A stretch of 63,938 nucleotides of DNA, the filler included, from Dugesia japonica (taxonomy: Eukaryota): assembly GCA_001938525.1 (NCBI GenBank). It is 6 parts of 6 records of this genome, joined end to end, with 100 filler letters (N's around TTAATTAATTAA, not from the genome) between each part and the next. Parts side by side here need not be neighbours in the genome. Positions count along the whole stretch, not along the records: positions 43,590 to 55,772 come from MQRL01497324.1; 5 more parts are not named here. One strand, 5' to 3'. Below, piece by piece: positions 1-63,938 of the stretch (within the stretch, counting starts at the first letter, position 1; each line of letters starts with the position of its first letter). The notes beneath the pieces are model-generated. The model did no database searches. It worked only from the letters and a program-made list of their open reading frames with translations, and was not told the origin of the DNA. Both the position numbers and the translations under genes were made by a program.

Positions 1-37
1 TTTATAAAAATATTATCGTTTAATATTAATTTCATAC

Positions 38-1267: not shown

Positions 1268-1314
<47 letters not shown>

Positions 1315-2200: not shown

Positions 2201-2738
2201 TTCGTAATAATTCATAGAATAACATGAAATTTTGAAACTCTAACAACAGTCATTGCAAAATGAAAACATTGATTAAATATGTAATTGAATTTACACATTT
2301 AGATTATAATATTAAATAATAGTAAAATAAACAAAACTGTCAAGAAATTTGACATAATTAAATAATTCAAGTAAATCAATAAATAATAGAAATGAGTAAA
2401 ATAAAATTCATTGATTATTTAATGATGCATGCGTAAACAAAGTTTGCAATAACAGCATGTAACTTTCCAGGTAGGCTTAAATTTAAATTACTAGTGATGT
2501 TGTTTCAGACTCAAGCTCATAAAATAAACTTTGATTTCTCAAGAAATTATTTGTTTTCTGTACACCAGGTAAAGGATCTCCTGAAAAGAAATTAATTTGC
2601 TTATTATATTCATAAAAATTCAAATCACATTTTTTTTTGAAAACTTTGAATGATTAGAACAATTGAAAATACACTCGATAGTCATAAACCGCAAAATTGA
2701 AAATAAATTTACTTTTCATATCCAATTATGTATGTAAT

Positions 2739-3480: not shown

Positions 3481-4149
3481 CAGAAAATTACACATATTAA
3501 AAAATAATCAATAATTTATAATAATTTAAATTAAACATAGTAAATCATTTTAGCAGAAACGCTCTTTTTCTATTCGTCATTTTATAATCATTTTATTAGT
3601 AGGATAGTAATTGAAATGATCAATAATAATAATAATCAAATTACGACTAAAATTACTTAAAATTAAATCTAACTTGGAAAAACCAAAATAGTGTTATCAA
3701 TTCATCTAATGAATTGATTCTTGTCAATAACCAATCAAATTGGAATTGAAGTACAAAAATAAAACATGGTAATCCAATGAACATTAATGAGATTAGAAAA
3801 TGATTTAGAGAAAAATAAATTTTAAAGAAAAATAAAAATATGATTTCTGTCATGATTATCATTTAGAAACATTATACATAATTAAATAATAAAACCATAA
3901 TTAATTTAATAAACAAGCCCTACTCCAACTTTTGAGAATTCGAAATATAAATCCACTTGTAAGCCACTACCGGTATTTTTATAGTTTTGGGTCACAAATG
4001 TAAATAAACATCATTTAGAACGCATAATAATTTTATTACTTATCACATAAAATAGTTTTTTGCAGATACCCAACTAAGAAGCATTGACAATTTATTAATA
4101 AAAATAAATATAAAAGATGTCTAAATATAGAAAAAACAGCTACACACCT

Positions 4150-4340
4150 CAACACTGGGAAGATAAGGTAGCAATGTTTTAAGCTTTTTTTAGAACAGAA
4201 AATTTTGATGTTGAGTTGCCTCACATAGGCAACACAGATGAAATGCCAACGAGCTTTGACATGCCAGCCAATAGGACTGTTGACTCAATTGGTACGGAAG
4301 ATATGAAAATTGGTACGGAAGATATGAAAATTGGTACATC
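4150..4340 (+). mobile_element. pogo-like DDE transposase fragment
   Basis: HIGNTDEMPTSFDMPANRTVDSIGTEDMKIGT resembles pogo IGNMDETP.xFDMP; a 21-nt tandem duplication lies at ~4288-4337. Confidence 0.7.
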
Positions 4341-4419
4341 CGCTGATTATTGCAATTTCTATTTTACTTTGTTGGTAATTAGCAAACAGTTATGATATCA
4401 TGATGTATTTTTATAACAA

Positions 4420-4620
4420 GGTGAACCCGGTATATCAACGTTGAAATGGAATATACATGATTCGAAAGTTATGTTATGTATCTCATGGTATCAGAAATGT
4501 ATCGCTTATTATAAACTTCTAAAGCCATTGGAAACCATAACTGGTGAATGCAATTAATTTGTTTGAAGTAAACTCTGACCAAAAATAGACCAAAATAGAA
4601 GAAAGGCATGCTTACATGAT
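4420..4620 (+). mobile_element. mariner transposase fragment
   Basis: IHDSKVMLCISWYQKCIAYYKLLKPLETITGE resembles mariner KVMLCIWWDQKGVIYYELLKPGETI. Confidence 0.75.
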
Positions 4621-5022
4621 TGTAACAGAATAACATGAAAGATGAACGAAGGTCGTATCTTCAAAGTGAACCTATTTTAATTTAATGCTTTTAAATAAAA
4701 TATTGTAATTATCATTGTATATGTTATATTCTAAAATAATATTGTTAAAATAATGTTATATTGTCATAATAATAAAAAGTATTGAATATTTTGAAGGTTA
4801 ATTTGATATTAGAATAAAAAAAATTACATTGAGAAAAACATATATCATTCTTCTCGGCAGACCTTTACCTGATCTATGGTGTCAGGCCAGTAGACAAGAT
4901 CTTAATATAGAATTATCACTAGAAACTAAAAAAATAAAATAGAAAAAAATTATAGTAAATTATAATCAATAATTTAAAAGTCGATTTTTTCGAGAATTCA
5001 TATAATAATCAATAACAACAAT

Positions 5023-5340
5023 AGTAGTAGGATATGAGCGCACTGGCTCACCCCCCTGAGTGCAAAAGTGAGTTACTATTTTGCAATGTAAATAGGCGGC
5101 AGTTGGAAAATGCGCAATTTAAATAGGCGACAAAGAAAATTTATGTGTGATTACATAACTTTTGCTTGTACTTTTTGTGTGCCTAGTTCGACTTTTTTCG
5201 AAATATTTTGACTTTCAAAATTTTTGGATTTTGTTTTTCAAATTTCAGATTTTTGCGCAATTTTTTTATTTTAAAATTATTTAAATTTATATAGGGAATT
5301 GTTCCTTATTTAATTTTAATTTATTCAATTTAATTTATTA
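5023..5340 (+). mobile_element. Polinton/Maverick-type terminus
   Basis: Starts AGTAGTAGGATATGAGCGCAC, followed by a GC-rich box. Same family as termini at 14992, 36783, 57802, 58502 and 60152. Lies 1.4 kb downstream of the pPolB relic. Confidence 0.55.
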
Positions 5341-6404
5341 NNNNNNNNNNNNNNNNNNNNNNNNNNNNNNNNNNNNNNNNNNNNNNNNNNNNNNNNNNNN
5401 NNNNNNNNNNNNNNNNNNNNNNNNNNNNNNNNNNNNNNNNNNNNNNNNNNNNNNNNNNNNNNNNNNNNNNNNNNNNNNNNNNNNNNNNNNNNNNNNNNNN
5501 NNNNNNNNNNNNNNNNNNNNNNNNNNNNNNNNNNNNNNNNNNNNNNNNNNNNNNNNNNNNNNNNNNNNNNNTAGGTTTTAATTATTGATATTGGATAACA
5601 ATTCAATATTTCGACCTTGTCTTCGTCAGGAATTGACTTTTTGAAAGTCAATAATTAAAACCCAAATGTTGATCGAAGCTTTTATATTAAATATATTCTA
5701 TAAAACGATTAATGGTTAAGTCTAACAATTATTCTCGCAATAATTGCAATTGTAAAACAATAATAATAAATAGGAAATTTCAATGAAGTATTATATAAGA
5801 ATTTTACTCGAATAAATTTTTACAGTTAACTTTTTCTGGGTTAATTTTAACAGGTAAATTTTTAGTTAAGTTTTACAGTTTATTTTACCAGTAGTATTTA
5901 ATTTTCTAAATAAGATTTTAGTAGTTTATTTTAGAATTTTCAGATAGTATTTTTTAATTGGTTTAGTAGTTAATTTTCAAGTAGTTGATTTTAGGTATTA
6001 AATTTTCTATACTATAATTTCTTGTTGTTAATTTTCTATTAGAAGATTTTAGAATTTAATTTTTAATTTGGTGATGTTTTAATTTTTATTATTAAATTTA
6101 AGATAGAGTAAATTTTATAGGTTTATTTTTACAGTTAATTTTTTAGAATCAAATTTTTTATTCTATAATTTGTACATAAATTTAATTTAACATATAATAT
6201 TTTTAATTTTAACATGGATTAAAATAAAAAGTAAATAACAAGTCAAATAAGTTTTTTTAAATTAAATTTATTAAGCAATCACATGAATACAATTTCAATG
6301 TTGATTTGATTTGAGTTGAACTGATTTGATTATTAAAACATAAAATTAATTTTAATAAATATCAAATAAAATGATTACCTGATTGAATTAGCAGTTTTTT
6401 TAAT

Positions 6405-9400
6405 TATGAGTTTAAATAATGCCCATATGGTAAGCTTTTATTATTTTCTTTCCAAACTCGTTTATCTCAATTATTAGTCAAAGCTACCTTAGGTTCAAAG
6501 AAACTATATAATTGATGGTTCTTTGTTCCAATCCGAAACTGGTACACTGAAACCGATTGATTGTTGTTATAACAATCTAGATACGATTGATGTGTTAAAT
6601 TAGTATATTTTAATGGTATTCCTTTTGCCTTCATGCTTGTTTTTTCACTAAGGAGACTATAGAATTTTTGTCTTAGAAAAACTCATTCCTTATATTTCAT
6701 TCCCTTATTCTCGTCTTTGAATCTCCCTACTACTGAGTTAAAGTCTTTGTTATATAATGTATGACTTGTGATATAGTTTGAAGTATCTAATAATTTATCT
6801 TTTACCATTGATTACAATAATTTTTCCAACTTAATGTTTTTTAGTTCCAAGAAAACGCTATCAGTATCACCAGCTACAATATCTATTTCACAACTAAGTT
6901 GTTTTCTATATTGTTCCAACTCAATTTACTGTAGCTTAATTTACTCAATACACTCTTAATTTACTCAAGTGAAGTACTGTTTGACCGATATAACTTGGTC
7001 GATCCAGGCAAAAAATTTCTTTATTGAGTAAAACTTCTATTAGGTCATCATCTATCTTAATAGTTCTTTTGAATCCAGGCTTGGAGGTATAGGTCATCAA
7101 CTTTTTAGCCTAATTAAAGAGCCGGAGATTCAAACATTTTTTCAAATTTTCCACAGACTTTCCGTAAAGACTGTTGCTCACCAACTTATAATAATTTTTT
7201 TCCAATTCCAATTTGCTTTGAAATCTTAATTTTGTATTAATATCTATGTATTCTTTGAAAATATTCCCCTGTATAAAGTTCACAGCTCTGTATATTGTTG
7301 TTATTTTGACACCTAATTTTATATACATTTGTAATAGCCTTCAGTATACTACATAATTATGTTTTGGGTGATGAGTTAACATAAGTTTTTTCACCTTCAA
7401 CCCTGGTGCACTTTGATGTTCGGCTGCCACTGGTAAATCACTTAAATAATTAAGGAGCTCATTTGGAATTTCTATGTCTACTTCTACAGTGTACCCATGC
7501 GATAAACAATCCTTATTTTTACATTCATCTAATATTTGTTCTAATTCTGTGTGAAAGTCTTTGTATGGCAGTTTCTGACTTAATGCCTATCCATATAGAT
7601 CGTTTATGTCAATGTACAGTAAATCCGTATTTTCCTCACTAGAGACATAGTGTTTGTTAACAAACGTTAAGCCTCCTCTGATTCCTCCCTCGAAAAATGT
7701 GTACATATCATTGTCTGTAAGTAAATCAATTGGTTCATTCAGTGTCATCAGGCAGATGCCCAACTCATTCCCGGAATTCCAAAGAAGTTTAATGGTTACA
7801 GTCTATTGTGTGCTATTGATTTGGCTCGAAACTGTTTGAAAAAGCCTGCCAACAGAAAGACATCTAACTTTAGATAGACCTTCATTTATTCCAATAAATT
7901 CGTACATCCCATGATTTCAAACATTTCCAAGGCCTTCTTATATGCTTCTTTATTGACATCATTCCACCTTGGAAGCTATGACAATGTTTCCTCCAAAAAT
8001 CTGTAAACTGGTTGCAAATTCATATAGGAAAATATCCTTTGACTTGACAATCCTATCATCACTAAATTCATTTGCAGTTAATGGTGTTGTTTTGATGGTT
8101 TTAACAACAGCATCCAATGAAGAGTTTATAAATTGATAATAATCAATAAACTTTATCGTTGTTTTGATAATGACGTGCAGTTAAACATAGAAAATTTTCA
8201 CTTGTTGTTGGAATACATGAAATATCTCAATGTTGAAATTTACCAAGTCCATATTTCAAAATATCATGTAGATCATATCCTCTCAAATTATGAAACACAA
8301 CTGGTAATTCGTATCTTATTTGTCTGCTTATGTTACAGTTGTTACACGCAGCTCCTAGAAATTTTCCTGTAAATTGATCATGGTCACGAACAAGATTAAC
8401 AATTTGCTTTCTACATAAATGGCAAATAATTGATACTTTAAATGAAATTTCCTCAATTGCTGATATTTCCATTTTCTTTTTACTATTTCTTTCATAATAT
8501 GGATACACTATATTATTATTTAGTTCTTCAATACAAAGTAGAAATTCATAAATGCAATCATAACTAATAAATTGATGATATTTGACATCATTAGTAAAAT
8601 TATTGTCCAGCAATATTCCAGCAGAAATCGTTACATGTTTGTGTTGATAATCTGGATCCTTTTCCAATACTGAATCGAAATCAACATAAATAACAAACGG
8701 TGGCGTTATAGTTTTTGAATAATTTGTAAAAAATTAATTCTTTTTCTGTTGGCATGGTGTACAGTGTATTTCCGGTCTGTCTCCTCTCACAAATGGCTTC
8801 ATGTGCATCAAATGTCTTTTTAATTCGAAATCCATTAAGGCAATTTTGACACCATATTGACTGTATTCTTACACCATCTTCTTTTACGTCTCTATTCATA
8901 AGCCCATTTAAATTTATTACTGCTGTGTAATAATATTTGTATCCATCTTTAAGTAGCAAGAAATCTATTTTTATTCCATTTTCAACCTTAAGCCTATGTA
9001 TTATATCTAAATTTGGGTATTTCATAACCACTTCTTCGTCATTATCTTCAACAATATTTTGGTTCTATGACAGTACATTGATAGCATATCCTGGATTTTG
9101 TTTTTCGAATTTTGGTATATTCACTTCTTCATCAAATATGAGTTCTCCAATAAACTCTTTATATTTTGAAGCTCGATAATTATTCTTTTTAACTACATCT
9201 CACTTAAGAATTGCAAGAATGCTATACAGAAAACATTTATTATCATTTTTTTGAATATTTAAAATTGACTTCTTTTTCACAAGGTTTCTGGAGTTTTTAT
9301 ATAACTGCTTCATGATAGTCTGCTGATGTCTGATACCTTTGTGATCTTAAAGTTTATCTCCAAGATACGAGATAATGTCCAACTAGACCCAAGTTCGTTT

Positions 9401-12280: not shown

Positions 12281-12380
12281 NNNNNNNNNNNNNNNNNNNN
12301 NNNNNNNNNNNNNNNNNNNNNNNNTTAATTAATTAANNNNNNNNNNNNNNNNNNNNNNNNNNNNNNNNNNNNNNNNNNNN
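12281..12380. other. Artificial scaffold spacer (44N-TTAATTAATTAA-44N)
   Basis: Identical 100-nt spacers at 12281, 21181, 34645, 43490 and 55773; TTAATTAATTAA gives stops in all six frames. Confidence 0.95.
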
Positions 12381-21166: not shown

Positions 21167-21280
21167 ATTATTATTATTATNNNNNNNNNNNNNNNNNNNN
21201 NNNNNNNNNNNNNNNNNNNNNNNNTTAATTAATTAANNNNNNNNNNNNNNNNNNNNNNNNNNNNNNNNNNNNNNNNNNNN

Positions 21281-34620: not shown

Positions 34621-35003
34621 TTTTAACTTATTCAGTTTTAAAACNNNNNNNNNNNNNNNNNNNNNNNNNNNNNNNNNNNNNNNNNNNNTTAATTAATTAA
34701 NNNNNNNNNNNNNNNNNNNNNNNNNNNNNNNNNNNNNNNNNNNNTTATTATTGAAGCAATTTTATATTTGTTATTTGAAATTAATTATGAATGAAAATCA
34801 TGATAATAAATATGAATCCGCTAATATTGTGGCAGCATTCAACACGGACTCCATAACAGACCGGTTGATGCCCAGTAGTATTTGGGAAAATCTATTAGGA
34901 AATGCTNNNNNNNNNNNNNAAGTAAAAGGAATCACTAATAAGAGAGAGCACGAACGACTGGTTACTTGCATGAGAGAAGATATGCTGGAAAAAATGTAGA
35001 AAC

Positions 35004-35210
35004 ATTAGAAATTAATTCAGATCTCTTTTCAAAAAATGGCTGTCTTAATTTATTATATTTTTGTTCGATTTTTAAAATTTCTTCACTGGCTTGTTCGTTC
35101 AACAAATCAACTTCATTTTTGAATTTCTTAATTTGTTCAATGATTTCACCCATATTAAAATTAACTCCACCATTTAATTTGACATCTTGAATTTTTGTAT
35201 CAGAAGCCAT
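35004..35210 (-). CDS. SET: SET/TAF-I (NAP family) histone chaperone, N-terminal exon only
   Basis: [32 protein letters not shown] closely matches the animal SET dimerisation helix ([31 protein letters not shown]). The downstream IPNFW exon was not found. Confidence 0.85.
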
Positions 35211-43440: not shown

Positions 43441-45139
43441 TTTACTTTTTAAATTAATAGAAAAATATTTTTGTTTTAATGGTGATTTTNNNNNNNNNNN
43501 NNNNNNNNNNNNNNNNNNNNNNNNNNNNNNNNNTTAATTAATTAANNNNNNNNNNNNNNNNNNNNNNNNNNNNNNNNNNNNNNNNNNNNTATAAACAACT
43601 TTGGACTAAAGTAACATTATATTACTGATTTCAAATAAAACAATATTACCGATTATGTAAATAATTTTGAAAATTGATAATTATTCTGTGAATACTTTGA
43701 CATTTTTTGAAAATTGGTAATAATGTTTATGAATTATTATAATATTTTTATAAATATTTACGTTTTTCAATAACGAGCCTATGTATCTCTCTACTATAAA
43801 TAAAGAGCGTAATCTCCTTTTTACCACCATTATTTGAAATCTTAAAAAAGGTCTAAGACTTCTTAAGTTACAGACCATAAGATCAAAATAATAACGTTAA
43901 TATTATATTGATATTTTTAAAGTAATTGTTAAATTTGAATAAAGAATTTTTAAAGTAATTTTTTCACTTAATTTTATAAGGTGACTATATAGTTTATTTA
44001 TTGATATATCATTTATATATATTAAACATATTAGGTTCAAATAAGAATCAAATTATCAGTGTGTCTATAAGAGAAAATTGTACGGATTTCATTCTATAAA
44101 TTGAAAGAGATCACGTAAAAATCGTTGATTTGCCTTTGTGAAATCCCAAAGACATCTCAACATATTGATTGATTGCATCAATTTGATTAAATAATTAAAA
44201 ACACGTGGGTATTGATAATTTAGGGTATAAGCAAAGTACATTCAGTGTTTCATTATGATTGAAAAATGAAGAAAGCAAGATTCATTTTTAAAATGTTTTT
44301 AATATTTTAAAATTTTATTTAGAATACCATTATAAATATGAATCCAATTGTTGAGAATTACATAATATAACATGCATACACAACAGAACATAACAGATAA
44401 TAATCAGTATGATCANCCCCAATCCAAGCAATTCAACAAAGATTCGCAATAAGGCAATTAGATAATCAATTTGATCAAAAGAAAAGAGAGAAAAAGAAAG
44501 CAATGAAATTTATTTTATTATTTATTTGACTTGATCAATAACATTTATTGTGTTATTTTAATTTATCTGATTTTCTGACATTTATGTTAATTTATCTAGC
44601 TTAATACTGTAATATTTTCGGACATTTATCTGACTTGATATAATTTATTGTAATGATTAATTATGTAAATAATTGAAAAGATATCCGGTATAGATTGATT
44701 TTGGAATAATTTAATTATATAATAGTTGATTGACTATCAAAATTATATGATAACTAATTTTACGAATATTTATTTTATGTATATGTATGTAAGTGTGTAT
44801 GCGTATGCTTTGAAAATCAGTATAAATACTGATCAGTTTGATGAAAAAATCAGACTTTTTAAATTGAGAAAACCTCTCTCTTTGGGTGGCTTTTCTCCTT
44901 TTAATAACTTATAACGTCTTCGTGTAAGGTTATATAATCCCAAAAATAAATATTTACAAGGTGTTTATTTATTTTATTTATATTGGATCGAATACAGTAT
45001 ATCACATATTTATATTTTGGTAATATATATCTTGTATAATATCGTACTTACACACACAACACTAAACAACTAAAGAAAAGCAGTTACAAATGTTAACAAA
45101 AGTGAACCAGTATTTTTGTTGAGTTAAATACCCCACACA

Positions 45140-45341: not shown

Positions 45342-46249
45342 GTTAGTTATTTTCAATTTTTTAAATGCAATTATGCTGAAAAAATAATTAAGTTTTAACT
45401 TTCTTGTAATAACTTGAACTTAATTTGATAATTAGGTGTAATAATTTTTGGTTCCATAAAAAACAGAACAATGAAAAAAACAGAACAGGGAAGAAACAGA
45501 ACTNGGAAGAAACAGAACTTTGAAAAAAAGAACTCATATTTTTATTTAAATTAGGTACGACGTAAATTATTTAAAGTATTTTATTTTATTATTTTGCATG
45601 TGTTATATTGCTTTTATGCCATAAGTGCAGAATGTGTGCACGAGAATTACTCACACGAATATGGCGCACATGAAAAATTGCTCAAAGTTTAATTTATTAA
45701 TTAAAAAACGTTCCTTAAATATTGAAAATACTTATGAAAAATTATTTGAATTAAAGACTTTGTTGTTAATATACTTTAAAGTATTTTTTGTTTATTTTAT
45801 AATTTGTTGGGGTGAATTACCGGTTAATGAAGAAAAATAATAGACCGAAGGATGAAATTCAGAAACAGAGTAGAAGAATTTAGAATGGGATAAAAACTAT
45901 GGCACCAATGTTTAAGAAAACCAAGGAAAAGATACATGACAGAAAGAGAATGTCAAAAGGAATAAATTCGAACCCGATCATTTATGTTAATTAAGAGAAA
46001 ATAGAATTTATCATAAAAAAGCAGGAAAGTTACTATTAAAAAAATAATTAATTAGTAAAGAAATATTAATTAATTTTATGAGAAAATAAATTAAAATTAG
46101 TCAAAAAATCCGTTTTTTACGAATAACTTTGCTTAGAATAATCACAGAGACTCGGGGAAGGAAAATCTGGAAAGAAAAAGATCGGGGACATTAAAATTCG
46201 GAAATGAGAAAATCGTGTCATTACCAAGAAGACCCCTATAAGCATCGGA

Positions 46250-46480
46250 AAAACGGGCCAATAAGGGGCTGAAAAATAACAATAGAACAAAGACCCAAAC
46301 ATCACATGGCAATTTAAAAATAGCGGCCAATAAGAGTTCTAAAACTCTACGAAAACTTTGAAAATTAGCACCAGAACCAATGGAAAGCAAGAAATTTGAA
46401 TCAATAATAGCAACCCAAAAGCAACGATGCCGGGTTGTATCAGAAAATCCTATAAAAAGGTCATGTAAATTTAGTCAAAA
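46250..46480 (+). promoter_or_regulatory. CCAAT-array + TATA promoter of unit A
   Basis: Three CCAAT boxes, then GCCGGGTTGT and CCTATAAAAAGG; conserved in unit B (GCCGGGATGT...CCTATAAAAGG). Confidence 0.6.
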
Positions 46481-48156
46481 TAACAATTTTTCATATCATT
46501 AATTACGTTGACTTAGTCACAAACAATTTTCAAATTAAAACACATTCCCATTTNGACAGGAAAAAAAAAGAAATTCTCATCTTGTGAATTCCGATAATCA
46601 GTGTTACTACAAGATATTGACAGAAGAAACCAAAACCGTTGCAGAAAACCAGAAAATTTATTAATAAGTAAGCATGTGTTATTATATGTTCTTTTACTGT
46701 TTAATGTAAGAAAAATGTTTCAAATTAACTATTAATAAAATTATGTCAATAATAATTTTCTAATTTCACTCAACATTTAGATAGTAGAATGCCTATGTAG
46801 ATGATGTCTGCAACTAATGATCACTAGGTGACTACAAATAAGATCGACTGCCATTGATTGTCTTGCGGTTGTGTGTAGATATTCTTTTTGTATCTTCAGA
46901 ATACTAATCGGCATGTGCAGCAATTTGCAAACCATCTGTCAGATCCCGATCACCATTAAAACATAGCAGAAATTTCCCACTAGAACAAATGTTATAAATT
47001 GGTTCTAAGTACATATGACCAACTCCGTCGGAATGACCAAGAAAAACATCCATTATAATTGCATTTAATTTCATGCCATAATGCTATACACTCATCGAGT
47101 GGGATTACACACTCACGCTAGTCAGTAGTTCTGCAAATTGAGATGTCATGTCGATTGGATAAATAGTATTGCCATGCATATGATAGCTGAAATTAATCCA
47201 GTAATAAAAAGCACACAAGCAGTGTGACTACTTGCTGTTGACAACCTACACTATTTCGGAAATGAGTTAATAAATGTCAATTTTCAGCAAATGCGAAAAA
47301 AGATATTACCACCGAAAACATTAGGTATCGTGATGACTATGTTCAGATTTATTGGCAAGAAAAAAAACTTATAAATTACATCGTCGAGGTTTCAGATATG
47401 GCATAATTATAACAACCTATACAGTAAAGCCATCACTTTGGATACTACTTTTTCGCGATATATTTTCTTTTGTGTTGAGTTCATTATTAAATCATTTTAA
47501 TATCTATCATATTTTTTTTGCTATCATATCAGTCAGAACATGTATGACAGTTATTATTTCAATCACCACCTTCATGCAGATTATAATTATCGATAATTCC
47601 ATTTGTTCTCATTTAAGGTCGTTATCACTAATGGGTGGATAATCTTTATCGTATCATGTATCAATTGAGATACCCTAGTTGATACTAGTGTCCAGTTATC
47701 ATCATCTAATAATGTTGACATCGTTAATATTGTAAACGCTGCGTTGCTTTTCAATCAGTTTTCTCATTATTACTGCCAGTACTATTGTTGTCATTATCAT
47801 TATTTGTTAGTAGCATTATTATCATTTTATTATTAAAATATGAGTATCAGTATTAAGATTGCCATATTATTATTTTATTACTTGTTCTATTAATGCCATT
47901 ATGAATATTAGGATTAATATTGTTTTCTTATTGTTAAACCTATCATTATTATCTGAAAAATCGGTATAAGTTTCAAAAATTGATATGGAAAATGCATATC
48001 TCAGCATTCGTATACTTAACTAACTTTTTTCAAATAAATAGCAACACAAGAGGTGTTATCGCTGTCATTCCACCCTTTATTAGTCTACTAAGGAGAATCT
48101 TAGCCACAATCATAGTCACATAAAAATGAAATCATAGTCACATATTTCTTTAGATT

Positions 48157-48342
48157 ATGTCGGCAGAACTAAAGCGTGCTCTTAAGATAATCTTGAAACA
48201 ACGAAGAACAGCACGATTAAAACAGNNNNNNNNNNNNNNNNNNNNNNNNNNNNNNNNNNNNNNNNNNNNNNNNNNNNNNNNNNNNNNNNNNNNNNNNNNN
48301 NNCCCTCTGATTTTTCCAGTGGACATCGACGCAGGAGGCTGA
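48157..48342 (+). CDS. Unit A ORF1: small basic protein of unknown function (contains an N gap)
   Basis: ttag|attATG; MSAELKRALKIILKQRRTARLKQ...PLIFPVDIDAGG; homologous to 52056-52250. Confidence 0.6.
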   Translation: MSAELKRALKIILKQRRTARLKQXXXXXXXXXXXXXXXXXXXXXXXXXXPLIFPVDIDAGG

Positions 48343-48474
48343 AAGCATTAAACATAATGTGTAATCGAATGATAATAAATTTGTTGATTTTCTATTTGAA
48401 TACCTTAAATTTATTTTATGTGTTATATCAACCGCATTCAAAACGTACGAATCGAATTTAGTTTATTTTTTTAG

Positions 48475-48886
48475 TGAATCATAAATGGGAAGTCCTATTA
48501 GATAAAACATCGGGTCGCACCATTTTAGAAAATACACCAACCCACACAATCGAGGTGCTAGGGTATTATCGGACTATTCAAATCTTCACCCCAGAGGACG
48601 CAGAAAATGAGAAAGAGTGGAACGCTGCTGAGCGTCATTATTTTTATACGGTACCGATCGTACCAGGGCCGTATACCATGCGGTTCCAATTGCAACAGTA
48701 AACCGAGATGGAGTACCACAAATTATTCGGCAGTGGCATGAAGGACCTTCGGTAGTAGGTGTCACTACGAACCATCTCCCCCCAGTATACAATTTAACAG
48801 CCTTCGTCCATAATAATTTGTGGAGTATAAGGAATTCGCCCGAAAATATTAATGAGAATACTGCCACCACTTCAAGTGACTCGTGA
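48475..48886 (+). pseudogene. Unit A ORF2: unknown protein with one apparent frameshift
   Basis: ag|TG AAT CAT AAA TGG; (M)NHKWEVLLDKTSGRTILENTPTHTIEVLG...LPPVYNLTAFVHNNL; homologous to 52389-52736. Confidence 0.6.
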
Positions 48887-49052
48887 ATGTTCTTTTTATT
48901 CTGTGCATACAATTAAATAAATGTTTTATCCCGTTGAAATCAGTTTAATTTTCGTATTTAACGTGTGCTTGTTGGCTTACTGAATTAGAACATTAACTTC
49001 GATTCATTATTTTTAGCGGGCAAATTTAGTTAAATTGAACTTTCTTTTGTTG

Positions 49053-49392
49053 TGCATTCCACACTCAACCGTGCTATGGCTCCCACTAAGAAAATACGTG
49101 AAACCGACGAGGACCAAGAGATGACTTGGGACCTGTACCGTCTAGCGAAATGACGATGGGAAGCAGACGTCGCCAATTCCACTAGTAAATTGAAAAGATA
49201 TAAGGCCAAATGCTTCGCTTTTAAAAAGGAAGTCGCAGCCTCACACACCCAAGAGCGGGTTAATTCGCAGAGATAATCTGGTCCCACCATGACCGCGAGA
49301 ATAAACTGGTCAGCGACATAATGCATCTCAAAGAAAAAATGCCTCTTGAACCCCTTATGGTTGATAAGAGTAGTCAAACTACGCGAACGTAA
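49053..49392 (+). pseudogene. Unit A ORF3: unknown helical protein with a stop and frameshift
   Basis: HSTLNRAMAPTKKIRETDEDQEMTWDLYRL...LEPLMVDKSSQTTRT*; homologous to 52961-53114. Confidence 0.6.
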
Positions 49393-50639
49393 TCGCTATT
49401 GTGTTGTTCGTTTCTGTAAATAAAGGTTCTCAGTGTTTAATTTAACAAATAACCAATTTCATATATCTTAAAATCTTTTTTTACAATTATAAATTATNNN
49501 NNNNNNNNNNNNNNNNNNNNNNNNNNNNNNNNNNNNNNNNNNNNNNNNNNNNNNNNNNNNNNNNNNNNNCAGAAATTATAAAAATTCAATTTATTTTCAA
49601 TTCAATAAAATCCATTAAAACATTGAAGAAATGCTCTTCACTTTAATTTATTTCCATGTAAAAACTATGAAACAATTGAAATAATATTTTACTCTATATA
49701 TTTCAATATTTTATATATAGAGAAAGGCAGATTAAATTACTAATCACATTTATCAGCATTTGTTAATATTATAGGTAAAATTCCAAATATATTGAGAAAT
49801 TATGAAATAATTTTATTAGTAAGACTGGAATTATTATATTAGCAAATAATAAGTAGATTAAAATAAAAGAAAATTTATATCAATAGAAAAAATATTTATG
49901 TTGGGGTGAAGAAAAATAAGACCGGGGGCCACGGCCTATTGTTGTAGACAAATATTAACTCGGAAACTTCTCATCAGTAAAGTCTAACAATCAGTGTTAC
50001 CAAAATCGGAAAGAAAGGTAATTGCAAAGAACTATTATAACTAAAATGGCGAGAAAACCATTATTAATGGATCAAAGAAGGAAAGAAAGTGATCGGAAGA
50101 CCACAATCCAACAAATTAAATATTCATCACCATCAATAATTAGGAAAATTATCATAATAATATTAAATACAGGAAAATAGCCAAGAGAAAAAATAAATCA
50201 ATTAAAATCATTATCAATTAAATTTTAATGAAAAATACAGTTAAATTAGTTCTAAATCCGTTTATTGCGAATATCTTGGCTTTGAAAACTCATAGAAGCT
50301 CAGAGCAAGAAAATTTGAGAAGGCCATGTATTAGGGCAACGGGATTTTGCGATGGAAAAATGATGCCATCGTTAGAAAGACCTCTACTGAGATTGGAAAA
50401 TTGAGTCAATAAGGACCTGAAAATAAAAATAAAAAACAAAGAAGCGACCATCACGTGTCACTCTAAAAATAACCGCTAATAAAAGCATTGAAAATCCAAA
50501 AAAATGCAACTACAATACCAATAGAACCAATTAAAAATGGAGAATTTAAATTAAAAATAACCAGCCAATAACAGCAAGGCCGGGATGTGACAAAAATCCT
50601 ATAAAAGGATCGAGAAAATCAGTCGAAAATCACATAAAA

Positions 50640-50726
50640 AACAGAAAAATTCTAATATTTGTGAATTAACAGAAAAATTCTAGTATTTGTGAATTAACAG
50701 AAAAATTCTAGTATTTGTGAATTAAC
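50640..50726 (+). repeat. 28-nt tandem repeat x3 in the unit B leader
   Basis: AACAGAAAAATTCTAGTATTTGTGAATT x3. Confidence 0.9.
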
Positions 50727-51769
50727 CATCTTCGTGTTCGAATTAAGAATCCAACAATAAAAGGAAATTATTTAAGACTTAACCGATTCAAAATATTATT
50801 CGTGAAGTTATAGAAGTGAAAACTAGTGTTCTACTCTAGTAATAAAAGGAGACAGTCAAAAGAAGAATCTGAAACGACCTATTCGCCCGTTCGGCATTCA
50901 AACACAGAAAAAGAAAATATACCAGGTGACTACCCGTTGCAGAAATCTGAAGATCGATATAAAAGTAAATCTTCGGTTATATTTATATTATGTTAAGAAA
51001 ATTTTTGGAAATAAATTTTCGGTTATATTTATAATGAAATTTTTGATTAAAACGAAAACTAATTTTTGGTTATCTTAATTCATGTTAATGAAACTTTTAA
51101 TTCCAGAATAAATTCTCCGGTACATTAAATCCACTTATGATTAAGTCATGTAAATAACCGTTAAAAAATTAAATATTATAGAAATAATTAAGATTTAGTT
51201 AACTTTTATTTGATACAAATGTTACCCATTTTAGTTAGATAAAAATATCTCTAAGTTAACTGTAATTGAGACCCAAGTTAATAATTCCAGTGTTCGAACG
51301 ATGTTCATCGATAAAATCGAGAAATTGTTGAATTTGATAAATACAAAATAAGAAAATTCCAATTTTTGAGAAATGCTGTAATAATTTACCATGATCAACA
51401 AATAAACGGCGAGACAGTGAATAAGTTGTTAAAATTTATTCGTATGCATCCTGGTCTAAATAACCACAGTAAAATTAACTGGAAGAGAAAGTGAATTCTG
51501 ACTCATTCATCGCATCTGATAATATCGAGTATACACAGTTCTACAAATCTGATCATGTCACTAGTTAATATCTGTTTCTAGAATTGGATAAATATGAATT
51601 AGATGCCGAGTAAATTACCGTCTCTAATATTAATACCCACTTTATGGAGATTAAAATTGTTAATATCATTGTCTTCATCGGTAACATTGCGGCTGCTAAC
51701 ATAATATTCGAAAATTAATCATTCACCCTATCGTTGTTACCAATTGTTATTTAGTTATCTGACATTAAC

Positions 51770-51994
51770 ATGAATATAACTAATATTGTACTAATGGGGT
51801 TCCCGTCATTATTTTTATTATTAGTACCATCATTATTATTAACTATTGTCATTATTATCATCCTCATTCTACTAACCTTGTTTATTAATTACATCATTAA
51901 CGACCCAGCATTACTGTGGTTATGTTTAATAATATTAACATTCCGTAACTTTCATGATTTATGGTATAAATGCTATAATAGCAAAGTTGGATAA
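51770..51994 (+). pseudogene. Unit B ORF0 C-terminal transmembrane segment
   Basis: IVLMGFPSLFLLLVPSLLLTIVIIIILILLTLFINYII...LLWLCLIIL; upstream part has stops. Confidence 0.4.
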
Positions 51995-52055
51995 CCGATT
52001 ACCCGACCAAACGGTGAATATATCCCCATAATCTATTTTAAATTAATTTTAGTTA

Positions 52056-52250
52056 ATGCCAACAGCACTAGGAATTAATCTGCGTTGGATCAAGAAACAA
52101 CGTAAGAGCTCTCGATTAAGGCAGTATTTGACCCACATACTATCACGATGGGTGGTAGAACATCCCTACGAGATGGATTTAGCGTATTTCGCCGAAATGT
52201 TTCCCCTGACGAATCATGTGGATTTAGATGCTGAAGATGAATCTTGTTAA
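52056..52250 (+). CDS. Unit B ORF1: intact 64-aa basic/acidic protein of unknown function
   Basis: ttttag|ttaATG; MPTALGINLRWIKKQRKSSRLRQYL...PLTNHVDLDAEDESC*; AATAAA 30 nt downstream. Confidence 0.65.
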   Translation: MPTALGINLRWIKKQRKSSRLRQYLTHILSRWVVEHPYEMDLAYFAEMFPLTNHVDLDAEDESC

Positions 52251-52388
52251 GAACCCCTATCATGTTATTAATTGTTTAAAATAAAACTTTGTATGAATAG
52301 CCGTGTAGTTTTGGGAGGTGACAATTTTTATTTGTTTTAATTTTAATGTGTTAAATTAAATCACTTTTCTTTATTCATTATCTGTAGA

Positions 52389-52736
52389 ATGGAATCCATA
52401 TGGGAGAGGATTATCGACCGTTGAACTCGGCGTATCGTTTTTCGACCCCATAAGAACCCACATAGTTGAGATGCGGGTATTCTAGCCAACCAGTTTAACC
52501 TACCTCCAGTAGAAGCCATGGTAGCCCGAATACAGGAATTTGGTGAGGGGCAAAGCTACCAAAATTGGACGGGGCCCGATCGGAGCCTAGTAACTCCCTT
52601 CCAATATCAACGTCCAGCCCTACCCCCAGCTGTGCAGGCGTTCATCACCAATTTACTCTTGGGTGTAGGGGAACCCTCGGATGCCGAGGACTCGGAAAAC
52701 ACCGCACCCGTAATTGACACTACAGTTAACCCATAG
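52389..52736 (+). pseudogene. Unit B ORF2: unknown protein, decayed 5' half
   Basis: tgtag|aATG; MESIWERIIDR*TRRIV...THIVEMR...LPPAVQAFITNLL. Confidence 0.55.
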
Positions 52737-52960
52737 TGTTCTATATGGTTTAAAGTTTTGTTTTAATAAAATGTATCGTCGTTTCTGAGGCTTATAATAA
52801 AATCTTTTTCTGGTTATTGGTTTGCTTTTCCGTTAAAGGAATAAATATCTGTAATGACTAGTGAATGCCCAATGAGTAACACCAGGTGCGAGAAGTTAGC
52901 GCAATTTACTAGTTCTTTATTTAGTACTGTTTTAATTTCATTTAATGGTATATATTCTAG

Positions 52961-53114
52961 TGCATTCCTCTTTGAATCGCACGGCTGTCCCAACTAAGAA
53001 AATCAGGGAGTCTAGTGAAGATTTGGATATGACCTGGGACGTGTATAAACTTTCTTAGCATCAACCCTCGAGCCATTAATGGTTGATAAGGGTAATCAAA
53101 CATCGCGATCCTGA
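52961..53114 (+). pseudogene. Unit B ORF3 (internally deleted)
   Basis: ttctag|TG CAT; HSSLNRTAVPTKKIRESSEDLDMTWDVYKL...LEPLMVDKGNQTSRS*. Confidence 0.6.
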
Positions 53115-53220
53115 TATCTGTTGATCTACAAATAAATGATTCTTGTTTTATGATTAATTTCTTCTCTCTGAATTATTTGCTAAACTAACTTTTACCTATT
53201 TTAAGAAAATAAATGATCTA

Positions 53221-55043
53221 ATGATATCTCTTACTTTAGTGCCACACATTGTCTTTCCCAATAGCCAATCACGAAAACTGTTATTTCCAAGAATAACAAA
53301 ATTCACAGAAAATGATGATGAAGGTCCAATAGCGTGATTGAAAAGAATTGAAACGTTCTCAGCCACAAATAACTTCGACCTCATGTCAACTTTTGTTTTT
53401 TATTAGAATGCAACTCTAAGGATTTATGGCTAGCTTGTAAATCACGAACCAAAATGGATGACAAATCAACAAGAGATTGGTTCAAATTAAAGTTCGTCAA
53501 AGATAAATCTTTTTTACCAATGATTGAAAATTTCAGTATAATCAGTCAAAAGACTGATGAAAGATATGAAAATTTCGAATTACGAGTAACAAGATCTCAG
53601 AAGGAAATATTCGAATCCGAATTATCAATGGAAGAAATTATGAAACAAGTAATTCAGAAAAGAGTAAAGTTCGGTGAGTCACAGATAAATTAGTTGACTT
53701 ACTCAGAAGTGGCAGCTACAAGGTACAATCCGAGAATTAAGAAAACTGATTTTAAAAGTTCTATCTATCATAAACGTAGGAATAATGAAATTGAAAAATC
53801 ATCTCTAATTGCTGAAAAATTTAATAATTCCAAAAACAGCAGAGAAGGTCAATTTAGAAATATGCCAACAGTTTCCATGAAATTTATTGCAAGGAAATTG
53901 TACAATAGATCAAAAGGACTCCCTCCACCAAAGGAAGCATAATTGAAAAAAGGCTCATGTTTGTGCTGTGGTCTTTACATACGTAATAACTGCCATCTTA
54001 AATCATGTTGCNTAATTTGCGGTAAAACGAGTCACTGTTTTAGAAACGGTCGATTACTCGGAAATCAGATGCATTACAACAATAATTGCGTGAAATGCAT
54101 TTCAGAAGAAAATGACAATGTGGATGAAAGAAATAAAGATTTAAAGATGATCAATCATGATGTAAGCTATTTAAACGAAAGAGACTCGATTGTTTCAATT
54201 TCGTTGATGGAGTCAATAAAATAAAAACTGAAATACAATAAAAACTATAAACGGGATTCTCAGCAATAGAAATCATTTATTGAAGGAAGATAAATATTTA
54301 CGCAAAGAACACAGCTTTGGATAGGACAAAATTAAAAATAAAGCTTACGATAATATTAAATGAGCATCGCAGACAATGATAAATTTAGGAAATAACCGTG
54401 TTAGTGTCGAATTCGAAATAGGTAACGACGTGCTAATAAGGAAAAACCTTCAAAAACGGAAGAAAAATGATTTACTCTATGAAGGTCCTAAAAATTTACT
54501 AACTTTCTAAAACCTCACCAAGTTCGGTTAGAAACACTACAAAGTTCCAGATTTAGAAGAATCGAATGGTTAAAGAGATGTAGTTTTTATGAAAAGGGGG
54601 GAAATAATTACAAAAACTGAAAAATTGTTTAAATACTGTGTTTTAGGATTTAGTTATATTTTGAACTTATTGAATAAATTTGAATATTGAATAAATATTG
54701 AATAAATTTAAAACTTTTGATTTAACTTAACCGAATATGTTGCTTTAGTTATGTATGATGTTTGTGTTGTGCGTTTGAGTAGGTCTGCGTAGAAGTTCAT
54801 ATATGTTAATTTGGTTCTCATTTTTCGCAACTTATTTACAAATGCACTCTTTTATGGTCTGTTAGTATAAATAACAATTGAAAATTTTATTAGTTATCAT
54901 TTTTATAGTTAACTGTACCGTCTTGGTCTTTTGATGATCAAAGACTATGTAAATAAAAAATAGTAACTGGAATAAACGCTTATTGTAATTTAGTTATCCA
55001 TATGTTGAGATACCTTGGGGGATTTGACCAAGATAAGTCAACA
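53221..55043 (+). mobile_element. Internally deleted Ty3/Gypsy element: gag relic, integrase C-terminus, PPT and 3' LTR
   Basis: Gag-like KFTENDDEGPIA*LKRIE; zinc knuckles CLCCG...C and CxICGKTSHCFRN; integrase tail FEIGNDVLIRK...YEGP; PPT GAAAAGGGGGAAA at ~54591; LTR-like segment with TATAAATA and AATAAA ending AACA at 55043. Confidence 0.78.
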
Positions 55044-55872
55044 ATGCGTGAGTTTAATGTTCAAGTAATTAAGAAAATCCCAATATATTATTGTCAATAT
55101 TATATCCTATATATCTTACAATATTTAGTATAGATACAATAATATTGATTATAAATATAGTATATAGTAGACCTTATTAAAATAACTAAAGTTTACTTTT
55201 AACAAATATTTTTATTATAGCTTAATTCTCAATATTACAACTAAAACGTTTTATATATTTTTTCTTTCAGTTGTATATCTGTTAAACAAGAGTTTTTTGG
55301 TGGTTCAAACTGAATTTATTGACAGTATTTTTACTAAATTTTGAGGAAATAATTAAATCACATTTACATATGAAAACCATAAAAATTTAATAATTACACA
55401 AAAATTTTATAATTACTGATAAAATTTTCATAAAATTTTCAGAAAATTTTAGTAATAAAAATGTTGGGGTTTTATCTATGTGGGAGATAAGTCTAGGGTA
55501 ATTGGAATAATAAAACCCCGCTAAGAGTTTAATCTGGTGTCCCTCAAAATTTCCCGATCTTTGGAATGGAGCCGTTGACTCGAAATCCGATTACAAACCC
55601 GCATTCCTTTGATTTGGGTTCCTATTTCATGACACTCGCTTGATTTTTGATTATGCATATTTAGCTGAGTTTATTTAATTACTACTTTAGTTTAAAAATC
55701 AATACCTTAAGTTTTAAAGTTATCAAGAACAAAAAATTTTAAAAAGTGAAAATTATATTCGATTATCCAAACNNNNNNNNNNNNNNNNNNNNNNNNNNNN
55801 NNNNNNNNNNNNNNNNTTAATTAATTAANNNNNNNNNNNNNNNNNNNNNNNNNNNNNNNNNNNNNNNNNNNN

Positions 55873-56885
55873 TACGATTTATTGTTTCAAATGAATATGA
55901 TCAGCAAATTGATGCAATCGAAAGACATGCAATTTGACATTGCACTGGAATGTATAAAAAGTGCAAAGAGTTAATTAAAAAATACAATGAAAATGGATTT
56001 GTATCCGATAAAATTTCAGCCAGAGATGTATAGCTCAATAAATAGAGATGGATCCAGATGAAATCCTATTTCCAGCTGGCACAAGCTTCAGACGACGGAA
56101 AGTGCACAAACAGTTCGACTATGAAAATAAAGAAGAATCATTGACAGATTCAAAAGAAAAATATCGAGTGGAATTTTTTAATGTTTTGTTAGATCAAGCA
56201 GTTATGTTATTGACTGCACGTTTTGAGCAAATGGAACATCACTTTGGTCTTTTTGGATTTCTGCACAACATCAAAAAAATTGCAGAATTCAACCAAAACG
56301 ATTTGATGAAATGTTGCATGGATTTGAATATTGCACTCACCAATGTATCTGGTTCAGATATTGATCCGAAGGATTTATGTAGTGAATTTCAAATATTTTC
56401 CAACATTGTTCCAGATACTGTTTCGTCTTCTCTTGATGCTTTACATTTTTTATGATCATGGTTTAAATGTCGCTATAACCCTTCATATAGCATTGAAAAT
56501 TCCGATTACTGTTGCATCGGGGAAAAGAAGTTTTTCCAAGTTAAAATTAATAAAAAGCAATTTGAGAACTACTATCACGCAAGAACGTCTGACCAGTCTG
56601 GCAATGATATCTATCGAACGAGATATCGTCCAGTCTCTGAATTATTCACAATTTATTGAAGACTTTGCTGCCATCAAAGCACGAAAAGTTGATTTTTGTT
56701 GCAGGTTTATGACATCTGCACGAATATGTTTGTATATGTCAGCTACTTGTGGATTTAAATATAAATACAGGTAGTTTTTAATAAATTGCATTACTTTTTT
56801 TGTATTTATTATTTATTTTTCTATTTTACTTGGGACCACGAAATTAACTTCACCTAGAGCCTCCCATTACCTAAGGTCAGCTCTG
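55873..56885 (+). mobile_element. hAT transposase relic (ZMYM1-like), 3' half with TIR
   Basis: RKVHKQFDYE, ITVASGKRSFSKLKLIKSNLRTTITQERLTSLAMISIERD; end CCTAAGGTCAGCTCTG. Confidence 0.9.
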
Positions 56886-62864: not shown

Positions 62865-63938
62865 CTTTCACATGTCCCTTAGTAGCTTAATGGTTTGGCA
62901 ATTTGAGCAAATTTAAAAACAAATTTACGGTAGTAATTTGCCAAGCCAAGAAATGACCGTAATTTTTCGGTGTACTTTGGAATTTCCACTTCAGCAATTT
63001 TCTTAATCATACCATTATTAGTACTTATTCCCTCTTTTGATATTTTATGACTTAAAAAATTAAGTTCAATTTTATACAGACTACACTTCTTTGGACTGAG
63101 TCTTAATCCAGGTTTTTATATTCGTTTAAAAACCTCCTCTAGGTTTTTATCGTGTTATGCCACTGTTGTCGCGTAAACCAAGACATCGTCTAAATACGCC
63201 GCGACTCCATTATAAAGGATATCCTCAAATAATTCATGAATGAGACTTTGAAAAGTCGCTGGGACTGTTGACAACTTGAACGACATTCGGGTATAGCAAA
63301 ACTGGCCCTTTTTTGTCGAAAATGCTGTTTTCAAATGTGACGATTCATCCAAGCATACTTTATTATAAGCTTGTCCTAAATATAATGACGAAAAAATGGA
63401 AGCTCCTGCCATCGTATTGAATATGGTTTACGGATCTGCCATGGGGAAACTAAATTTCTCTGTAACTTCATTAATATTTCTATAGTCCTGGCAGATCCTC
63501 AATCGTTTCCTCCTTCTTTCCTACAACTACGAGCGGCGAGTTCCATGGACTATGAAATTTCTTAATTATACCAATTTCAACAACTTTGAGATCATATCAT
63601 CCACTTTAGATTCCTTTTGCATCGCCATTCATCTTGGATTTTGACTTATTGGAGTCCCAACGGTTTTTATACAATGTGTTACCAGATTTGTACAACTTAA
63701 ATCGAAATCCGATGCCATTAAAATAGTACTATTTTTCAATACTAATTCTGTACACTTTGAAAAATTATGGGATCAAAAAATATTTAAAGCCCTTTGTCTT
63801 CTTTCTTCATTCCGATACGTAAAACCTAAGACTTCCGAATCTATAAAATTCAATGTGACTCTCGATAAAAGTTTCAATCCTAAAGCTGAAATAATATTCA
63901 TACCACTAAAAAAACTAAATTAACTACCGTAATCTGGA
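62865..63938 (-). mobile_element. Ty3/Gypsy reverse transcriptase relic
   Basis: SPWNSPLVVV, LRICQDYRKINEVT, TAFSTKKGQFCYTRMSF.L...PATFQ, AYLDDVLVY, KFLSH.I, FLGLANYYRKF. Confidence 0.92.

Follow-up and report, generated by a model that had tools for sequence, protein, structure and literature searches.

The 63.9-kb stretch of Dugesia japonica DNA analysed here, referred to as the window, contains two related, decayed elements of 3.2-3.6 kb, which lie adjacent to one another in AT-rich, animal-type sequence (27% GC). Unit A (45805..49437) is a complete insertion of 3633 bp that starts TGTTGGGG and ends CAGTGTT, its end being placed by direct repeats and two DNA contigs. Unit B (49899..53146) is a complete insertion of 3248 bp that starts TGTTGGGG, ends TTCTTGT and is bounded by the direct repeat TTTATG. 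Both units, with their promoter blocks, putative leader exons and rows of open reading frames (ORF0 to ORF3), are read on the plus strand.

Two insertions of one repeat family

The homology of A and B, proposed in a sequence-only reading as collinear though diverged, is borne out by alignment. Their promoter blocks (46039..46485 in A and 50188..50634 in B) are identical at 315 of 435 aligned letters (72%; z=21 against shuffles), and ORF1, the start of ORF3 and the tail align with z=5.7-8.2, whereas the spacers and leader give z=-0.2 to 1.3. The paired motifs listed in the same reading proved specific to the units: TGTTGGGGTGAA, GCCGGG-x-TGT, CCTATAAAA(A)GG and CCGTTGCAGAAA each occur exactly twice in the window, once in A and once in B, and none was found on the minus strand of its 63.9 kb.

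Exact 6-bp direct repeats are present at the homologous ends of both units. TAATTT flanks A at 45800..45805 and 49438..49443 (chance per position 0.005; a 5-bp TAATT if the unit begins at TG), and TTTATG flanks B at 49895..49900 and 53147..53152 (0.004; a 4-bp TTTA if the unit begins at TG), the right repeat of B lying at the position homologous to the end of A. The repeats differ in sequence between the units; each is AT-rich and overlaps the first TG of its unit. The right ends originally placed at 49447 (A) and ~53140 (B) are corrected accordingly to 49437 and 53146. With these best ends, the termini are TG...TGTT in A and TG...TGT in B rather than TG...CA, and the 3' ends hold no CA and form no inverted repeat of the 5' end. 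The alternative end of A at 49447 has CA but a duplication of only 3 of 4 letters, and B lacks CA there. No terminal inverted repeats were found: when the first 150 nt were compared with the last 150, exact inverted matches reached at most 7 bp, the longest being internal.

Two DNA contigs run from the left flank of A straight to 49436, skipping A, and thus represent an empty site. With one ATT-repeat bin excluded, the depth of all contigs added together ranges over 33-4600 in A and 58-1150 in B, compared with 7-9 for the contigs that match closely. With direct repeats bounding both units, empty-site contigs at A and depth at repeat level, A and B each represent a separate and complete insertion of one repeat family. 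Both are decayed, dead copies. The claim of a mobile element carrying a multi-gene cassette gains from the same three observations, and the cassette is a real and unusual one. A and B as the paired LTRs of a single element were rejected, since their differences are coding-biased, closer relatives exist for each, and each is flanked by repeats of its own.

Promoter, leader, cassettes and predicted splicing

The promoter lies 640-700 nt inside the 5' end, with its TATA box at 46451 in A and 50600 in B; A also has CCAAT at about -193/-194 and -74 and a GCCGGG element at 46429. Of the CCAAT boxes reported earlier, two align between the units, at about -194 and -74 relative to the TATA box (one as a variant in B), and the others do not. 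A putative non-coding leader exon follows at 46473..46667 in A (predicted start site; donor GTAAGC at 46668) and at 50621..50964 in B (three 28-bp repeats; donor GTAAAT at 50965). In both units the donor stands 31-32 nt past a common leader motif and is preceded by A, the last base of the leader. As initially read, the leaders are free of ATG, with 0 in 195 nt of A (P=0.036) and 0 in 344 nt of B (P=0.001) in dinucleotide shuffles. An extra phase-1 donor-like site occurs in B at 52102, to which A has no counterpart.

ORF0 is heavily decayed. In A its region (46781..48038) has a hydrophobic 3' part and AATAAA at 48033; in B the remnant (51494..51994) is predicted by eye to be a multi-pass hydrophobic protein, with 4 stops in 166 codons versus 12 and 23 in the other frames, and lacks AATAAA. 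A-B similarity in ORF0 is recognisable only in the hydrophobic 3' part (tblastx E=3e-5). Over the whole ORF0 region of B, stops are fewest in a minus frame (20, versus 29-43 in the other five). A possible minus-strand ORF0 was tentatively dropped, the best A-B match being plus/plus.

Cassette 1 spans 48154..48379 in A (acceptor 48154, ATG 48157, N gap 48226-48302, stop ending 48342, AATAAA 48374) and 52053..52285 in B (acceptor 52053, open 64-codon ORF 52056-52250, AATAAA 52280). The latter ORF is the only one unbroken; stops, frame breaks, deletions or an N gap interrupt the rest. Cassette 2 of A (48475..48921) has an acceptor followed by an in-frame TG, with the first in-frame ATG at codon 69 of a broken ORF and AATAAA at 48916, and that of B (52388..52770) has acceptor 52388, its own ATG at 52389, a broken ORF ending at 52736 and AATAAA at 52765. 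Cassette 3 of A (49053..49424) has a damaged acceptor followed by an in-frame TG, a broken ORF of ~110 codons, a stop ending at 49392 and AATAAA at 49419; its B counterpart (52961..53136), ~190 nt shorter, has an acceptor followed by an in-frame TG, a stop ending at 53114 and AATAAA at 53131. A fourth cassette at 53240 was rejected as lying outside the right repeat of B, although it has a good acceptor 109 nt past AATAAA.

An AATAAA after each ORF1-3 stop, as noted before, was recovered in all six cases at 17-32 nt (27-32 nt in five, A's ORF1 being at 32, and 17 nt in the sixth), the chance rate being 13-14% per 46-nt window. When AGs were scored for T tracts by a crude measure devised for the present analysis, the named acceptors came 3rd, 6th and 7th among 134 in A and 1st, 2nd and 9th among 97 in B. 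The acceptor dinucleotide of A's ORF3 is not intact.

Past coding selection, also suggested earlier, is shown overall by a pN/pS between A and B of 0.39 over 84 codons in blocks picked for being alignable (Fisher P=5e-10), compared with 0.89 and 1.91 in the other frames. Taken singly, the signal is clear for ORF3 only (codons 10-23, P=0.00015; codons 2-7, P=0.04), ORF2 (P=0.14) and ORF1 (P=0.38) not being significant alone. No protein was recognised at the outset, and no homologue or fold was found for any ORF. Homologous proteins of similar length were not found for ORF1-B or a piece of ORF2-B; a piece of ORF2-A gave 2 hits in HMMER against 1.84 billion representatives, both rejected as repetitive proteins that scored over many stretches. 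The unit ORFs had no match among Pfam and PDB sequences, no homologue in the ESM Atlas (the best, 0.89, is a lead at most) and no relatives, by protein or motif, in viral and metagenome contigs. Single-sequence AlphaFold models were poor (pLDDT 60 and 62), and no fold search rose above background, the best Z being 4.2. By eye, the beginning of ORF2 looked somewhat WW-like, but this gained no support. The products probably evolve fast and serve as accessory factors that act on the host cell, namely a membrane protein, small soluble proteins and a helical ORF3, this being the weakest point of the interpretation.

The sequence has a one-leader layout of promoter, ATG-free leader with donor, and an acceptor and poly(A) signal per ORF, barring the ORF3 acceptor of A and the ORF0 AATAAA of B. 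The TATA/CCAAT promoter would start a transcript beginning with the ATG-free leader, which would be cis-spliced onto one of four downstream acceptors, giving one gene per transcript, with a separate poly(A) signal closing each gene. That the TATA box drives transcription and that the leader is cis-spliced to the acceptors are both judged likely. The final A of the leader and the first TG of the acceptor would form the start codon of ORF3 in both units and of ORF2 in A, a proposal for which the odds are even. It is supported by the finding that all six ORF1-3 acceptors yield a Met within 3 nt under the model, three through their own ATG and three through A plus TG, when TG follows only 16 of the 231 AGs in both units; in addition, the ORF2 Met of B shares its register with the Met that splicing would create in A's ORF2. 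Against a split start, codon 9 of A's ORF3 is an ATG, opposite a near-cognate codon in B (in a gapped alignment), so ORF3 may start there, and ORF2 of A may instead have lost its own start by decay. In RNA from three studies (5.2 billion letters), depth was 0 over 46790-48389 and ≤0.62 in the other unit bins outside low-complexity and flank bins. Among the joints listed from three runs whose RNA barely covers the units (depth ≤0.62) there was no leader junction, and no loose ends were listed at the acceptors, where coverage was near zero.

Origin of the units

The overall best explanation, held at a probability of about 0.45, is that A and B are two solo LTRs of a large LTR retroelement, the LTR holding a multi-gene, cis-spliced unit. 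A solo-LTR origin in itself, which would entail a U3 of about 670 nt, an R of about 2.6-2.9 kb and almost no U5, is evenly balanced. Target-site duplications of 4-6 bp are present and exact (TAATT(T) at A, TTTA(TG) at B), and the promoter near the 5' end, together with a last AATAAA 13 nt (A) or 10 nt (B) from the 3' end, gives a U3-R-U5 order by sequence and so supports a solo LTR. A plain mRNA copy cannot carry its own upstream promoter. The inverted TG...CA ends of LTRs are absent; LTRs ending TG...TT occur in plants, according to the abstract of PMC5659011, and the missing CA therefore lowers the LTR reading without excluding it. Several poly(A) sites inside R also argue against it, as genomic RNA would need read-through, and no primer site, purine tract or linked gag-pol for A or B was found in the window.

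The strongest competitor, though itself unlikely, is that the cis-spliced cassette is a whole non-autonomous DNA-level element, either a Crypton-like circle inserted via a tyrosine recombinase or a virus- or Polinton-associated satellite. Direct repeats of 4-6 bp without inverted or long direct repeats accord with Cryptons as described in excerpts of PMC3212892; units lacking a CA end, AT-rich repeats that overlap the first TG, and an internal promoter with retained introns, which need no RNA step, fit such an element as well. The repeats of A and B differ, however, as expected of target duplications, the unit ends right at its last poly(A) signal, which would be superfluous for a DNA element, and the ORFs show no recombinase or viral hallmark, the decayed ORFs having no Pfam match to a tyrosine recombinase. 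Other DNA-level classes were rejected: a TIR DNA transposon, Ginger or Polinton for want of terminal inverted repeats, and a Helitron. Helitrons have TC...CTRR ends, a 3' hairpin and no target duplication, whereas the ends here differ, duplications are present and the final 80 nt fold weakly, at about -5 kcal/mol.

Rather less probable is an operon resolved by spliced-leader trans-splicing, with the 5' donor serving ORF0 alone. AATAAA-to-acceptor distances of 101-137 nt (between B cassettes 2 and 3, 196 from the first signal or 121 from the last) resemble those of flatworm operons, the S. mansoni median intercistronic distance being 99 bp in the part of PMC12582326 consulted. If the leader ended in AUG, this start would be in frame with ORF1 of both units, but would be followed at once by a stop on A's ORF2 and give the wrong frame on ORF3 of both. 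Very little weight falls on a pseudo-LTR or 3' module of a giant Penelope-like element with co-oriented accessory ORFs: Terminons bear many such ORFs, transmembrane and coiled-coil among them (PMC6431247, in excerpt), but the 5' end is identical and precise in both copies, and no hammerhead was found in either unit by Rfam or a core-motif scan (0 hits each), which very degenerate motifs might escape. Least probable of all, and already largely refuted, are fragments of ordinary host genes, or a local duplication, whose splice and poly(A) motifs would be there by chance. At 27% GC, AATAAA and T-rich AG sites turn up often, and neither ORF1 nor ORF2 shows significant selection by itself, but the single-copy host-gene alternative raised at the start is contradicted by the direct repeats, empty-site contigs and repeat-level depth, to which shared motif order and ORF3 selection may be added.

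Comparison with known systems, and the neighbouring remnant

Adenovirus major late units and parvovirus single-promoter maps use one promoter, a non-coding leader and alternative 3' splice sites paired with alternative poly(A) sites. The predicted layout of A and B follows the same logic, but the units are a 3-kb genomic repeat with no sequence or fold link to any virus. Among retroelements, planarian Burro/GYPSM1 and plant Ogre are similarly multi-kb (Ogre LTRs 1.9-6.5 kb; Burro >30 kb in total with <=25 kb internal), and solo LTRs of giant Gypsy elements share high copy number, a 5' promoter, a 3' poly(A) signal and a 4-6 bp flanking repeat; in the portion of PMC6431247 drawn on, however, extra ORFs lie in the internal region or polyprotein, not in a spliced row in the LTR, and the ends of A and B, without CA, also differ, Burro being compared by description only. 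In Drosophila gypsy, the start codon of the env subgenomic mRNA is created by joining a 5' donor to a downstream acceptor, but AT|G is split for one gene, whereas A and B would split A|TG with one leader and several terminal exons (PMC2585583, excerpted). MDG1-group sORF1 and sORF2 are likewise small accessory ORFs of an LTR element without sequence homologues; one is transmembrane, and an alternative poly(A) site separates the two, but they lie upstream of gag and are expressed unspliced, whereas the ORFs here each have their own acceptor and poly(A) signal (PMC11952523, in part). Crypton ends likewise have short direct repeats only (PMC3212892, in part), but no tyrosine recombinase was found by Pfam in the decayed ORFs of A and B, and their repeats are unlike between copies. 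A literature search with narrow phrases found no papers on ORFs within LTRs or alternative terminal exons in LTRs.

Solo LTRs are usually regarded as non-coding promoter relics. It is a speculative and rather doubtful extension of the solo-LTR reading that the LTR of an animal retroelement might be a self-contained, virus-style late unit, in which a leader spliced to four terminal exons gives some their start-codon A, every solo LTR spreads a working accessory cassette without gag-pol, and a conserved promoter and last gene flank fast-changing inner genes. If so, genes with a split start codon would be untranslatable unless spliced, hundreds of solo copies would be gene cassettes missed by annotation and needing silencing control, and their products would be candidate factors for counter-silencing or cell-to-cell spread. 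The model predicts named junctions, start codons formed at the junction, and poly(A) sites; if the unit is not an LTR, the same unusual gene map would belong to a mobile element that has yet to be classified.

Downstream of B lies a 5'-truncated Gypsy-type remnant (53263..54995, plus strand). B as the 5' LTR of the gag that follows, with gag as a fifth exon, was rejected because B has its own repeat at 53147 and the gag start is missing, the remnant lacking the ~34-residue start of intact relatives. Its 5' truncation and its own short LTR-like end, which bears no resemblance to B, indicate that it is probably unrelated to the units. It comprises gag with zinc knuckles, an integrase-like tail, a purine tract at 54591-54603 and an LTR-like end of ~390 bp, the integrase tail and LTR having been read by eye.

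Two separate insertions of a mobile repeat

Units A and B are mobile, separate insertions of homologous repeats on the plus strand, occupying 45805-49437 and 49899-53146, respectively. These limits, good to within two bases, follow from exact direct repeats at the ends: TAATTT brackets A (45800-45805 and 49438-49443), while TTTATG brackets B (49895-49900 and 53147-53152) at an end homologous to that of A, each repeat having a chance of 0.004-0.005 per position. An empty site was also recovered, in that two contigs from DNA run X4 connect the left flank of A to 49436 and hence lack A. The direct repeats at both units, the contigs without A and the high summed depth bear out the mobile element proposed by the sequence-only reading. 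The right end of A that it had favored, 49447 (TTAACA), is now the second choice, since the duplication there matches at 3/4 positions, B has no CA at this point, and 11 extra bases would have to align by chance in two contigs. The left flank of A is alike at 10/15 bases to the stretch up to 49447, so this end is kept as a less likely alternative. A is nested in another repeat with a left-flank depth of about 900 (45510-45804 and 49438-49898), from which an 84-85 bp segment is missing in DNA contigs and in two RNA reads. B was inserted in the same orientation as A, only about 460 bp away.

Closely matching contigs in X4 have depths of 7-9. Summed depth at ≥84% likeness, which does not equal copy number and is given here excluding one bin inflated by ATT repeats, ranged from 33 to 4600 in A and from 58 to 1150 in B. 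At the same likeness, the profile across 45830-49349 of A reached about 1700-4600 at the promoter (the first bin being inflated by A-rich sequence) and 3900 at ORF3, and just 33-180 over the leader, ORF0, ORF1, and ORF2, which suggests conserved ends flanking variable inner genes. No high-depth deletion joint in A was present among the 15 joints listed. The repeat family is nearly silent in the three RNA runs sampled, one from each of three studies; about 6, 25, and 25% of the respective runs were covered, for 5.2 billion letters in total. RNA depth was 0 across 46790-48389 and at most 0.62 in the remaining unit bins outside low-complexity and flank sequence. The sole RNA joint among those 15, with a further 53 joints lying outside that listing, is in the left flank (two reads); family relatives with diverged leaders would escape detection as RNA joints.

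Shared layout, predicted splicing, and coding capacity

The two units are collinear, as had been proposed, with a 447-nt promoter block that is 72% identical (z=21) and four diagnostic motifs, each found only twice in the window, once per unit. Relative to the TATA box, aligned CCAAT boxes lie near -194 and -74. ORF1, the start of ORF3, and the tail also align (z=5.7-8.2), whereas the leader and spacers align no better than shuffles. Both leaders are free of ATG, with none in 195 nt of A and 344 nt of B (shuffle P=0.036 and 0.001), and a donor-like GTAA lies 31-32 nt downstream of a shared leader motif. Other parts of the proposed layout held as well: the proposed acceptors are among the ten best-scoring of 134 AGs in A and of 97 in B by a crude measure, and AATAAA starts 27-33 nt past the stop codon of ORF1-3 in five of six cases and 17 nt past it in the sixth, the chance of the hexamer being 13-14% per 46-nt window. 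The GC content of ORF1-3 is 41-51%, against 23-34% in their spacers and 27% in the window.

In the arrangement predicted from these signals, the promoter would start a leader transcript whose donor would be spliced to any one of four acceptors, with a separate poly(A) signal closing each terminal exon. Such cis-splicing is fairly likely. A feature that the sequence-only reading had not remarked on concerns the start codons. The last leader base is A in both units, and three of the acceptors it had placed (ORF2-A, ORF3-A, and ORF3-B) open with a TG in the coding frame, so that splicing would create an ATG; a TG follows only 16 of the 231 AGs in the units. In ORF2-A, the first in-frame ATG occurs only at codon 69, and ORF2-B has its own ATG in the same register as the predicted spliced methionine of ORF2-A. 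However, the two ORF3 instances do not count as independent of each other, codon 9 of ORF3-A is an ATG opposite a near-cognate codon in B, and ORF2-A may have lost its start through decay; the chances of a split start codon are about even.

ORF1 of B alone is intact, every other ORF being broken. Over 84 ungapped codons in four A-B blocks, picked since they aligned and thus biased, pN/pS was 0.39 (Fisher P=5e-10), compared with 0.89 and 1.91 in shifted frames. The past coding selection suggested earlier is therefore upheld overall and for ORF3, where codons 10-23 give a firm signal (P=0.00015) and the first six a weak one (P=0.04), but not singly for ORF2 (P=0.14) or ORF1 (P=0.38). ORF3 has a last frame and stop common to A and B, and three relative contigs span its end with other letters; judged by eye, two keep the frame with no stop, and the third is shifted by a single base. 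A hydrophobic 3' part of ORF0 remains common to both units on the plus strand (A-B match, E=3e-5), and ORF0 of B contains four stops in 166 codons. As with the sequence-only reading, which recognized none of the proteins, sequence and fold searches, including Pfam, PDB, and ESM Atlas, detected no homologue or fold for any ORF.

Element class and precedents

A solo LTR best accounts for three features of both units: the promoter lies 640-700 nt in from the 5' end, the last poly(A) signal comes 10-13 nt before the 3' end, and the flanking duplication is 4-6 bp long. There is an even chance that A and B work in this way. On the other hand, R would be close to 3 kb long and contain poly(A) sites, both units run TG...TGT(T) with neither a CA terminus nor an inverted repeat, and no gag-pol linked to either was found within the window. 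The units are therefore not filed as LTR or Burro members, although multi-kb LTRs reported for Ogre and Burro (PMC6431247) resemble these 3.2-3.6 kb units in size, and TG...TT ends are described for plant Copia families (PMC5659011). Among other explanations, a trans-spliced operon of the kind outlined in PMC12582326 would fit the gene spacing, a flatworm comparison that is conditional on a planarian host, but its AUG-ending leader frame suits ORF1 only, and a Penelope pseudo-LTR is disfavored by the lack of a hammerhead in Rfam and core-motif scans of the units. A Crypton-like or virus-derived DNA element, comparable to those treated in PMC3212892, is a further candidate. The ends of A and B do not match those of terminal-inverted-repeat transposons or Helitrons.

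The most complete reading, to which we assign a probability of about one in four, is that the LTR would be a self-contained multi-gene unit, with one leader serving four alternative terminal exons and some start codons made by splicing, and would be spread by solo LTRs. Each ingredient is known singly, be it an LTR of great length, a set of small accessory ORFs that use alternative poly(A) sites, or a start codon created by splicing. MDG1 elements are described with such ORFs (PMC11952523), and in Drosophila gypsy the env start codon is reported to be made by splicing (PMC2585583), as proposed here for ORF2-A and for ORF3 of both units. Narrow searches of the full-text literature found no report of these features combined in one terminal-repeat-like unit; existing repeat libraries may nonetheless list the sequence as an LTR, with its anatomy unremarked.

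Neighboring elements and other features

B is followed by a decayed Gypsy-type remnant (53263-54995, plus strand) comprising gag with two zinc-knuckle-like motifs, a mostly missing pol, an integrase-like tail, a purine tract, and a terminal stretch of about 390 bp that resembles an LTR. The gag remnant is 48-56% identical to proteins P0004 and P0005, and the contigs that carry relatives reach 4.4 kb. It is probably separate from B, because it lacks the ~34-residue start conserved in intact relatives, carries its own purine tract, and has an LTR-like end unlike B. Its depth was 2400-7200 in DNA, with some RNA reads in one run. A strong acceptor at 53239/53240 (plus strand, within 53153-53262), followed by TG and preceded at 22 nt by the branch-like sequence CTAAT, lies just beyond the right repeat of B and would reflect either a host exon or chance. 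A third TGTTGGGG at 55462-55772 (plus strand) runs into an N gap, and no similarity to either unit could be detected; it is perhaps another element end.

The window reads as part of an animal-type genome, with which a planarian host would be compatible, and portions of it occur in seven sequencing runs from a single organism. It is dense in transposon relics, including an integrase zinc domain (638-1427, minus strand), a hAT dimerization domain (56042-56774, plus strand), and a reverse transcriptase (62879-63923). Inspected by eye, decayed ORFs at 6467-9064 (minus strand) resemble a polymerase region of the Polinton/adintovirus type, with a weak Endonuclease_7 match. A fragment of a NAP/SET-like nucleosome assembly protein lies at 34962-35210 (minus strand; Pfam NAP, E=9e-7). 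The gaps at 12281-12380, 21181-21280, 34645-34744, 43490-43589, and 55773-55872 each have a 12-base TTAA linker flanked by 44 N on either side, an artefact that yields false repeats.
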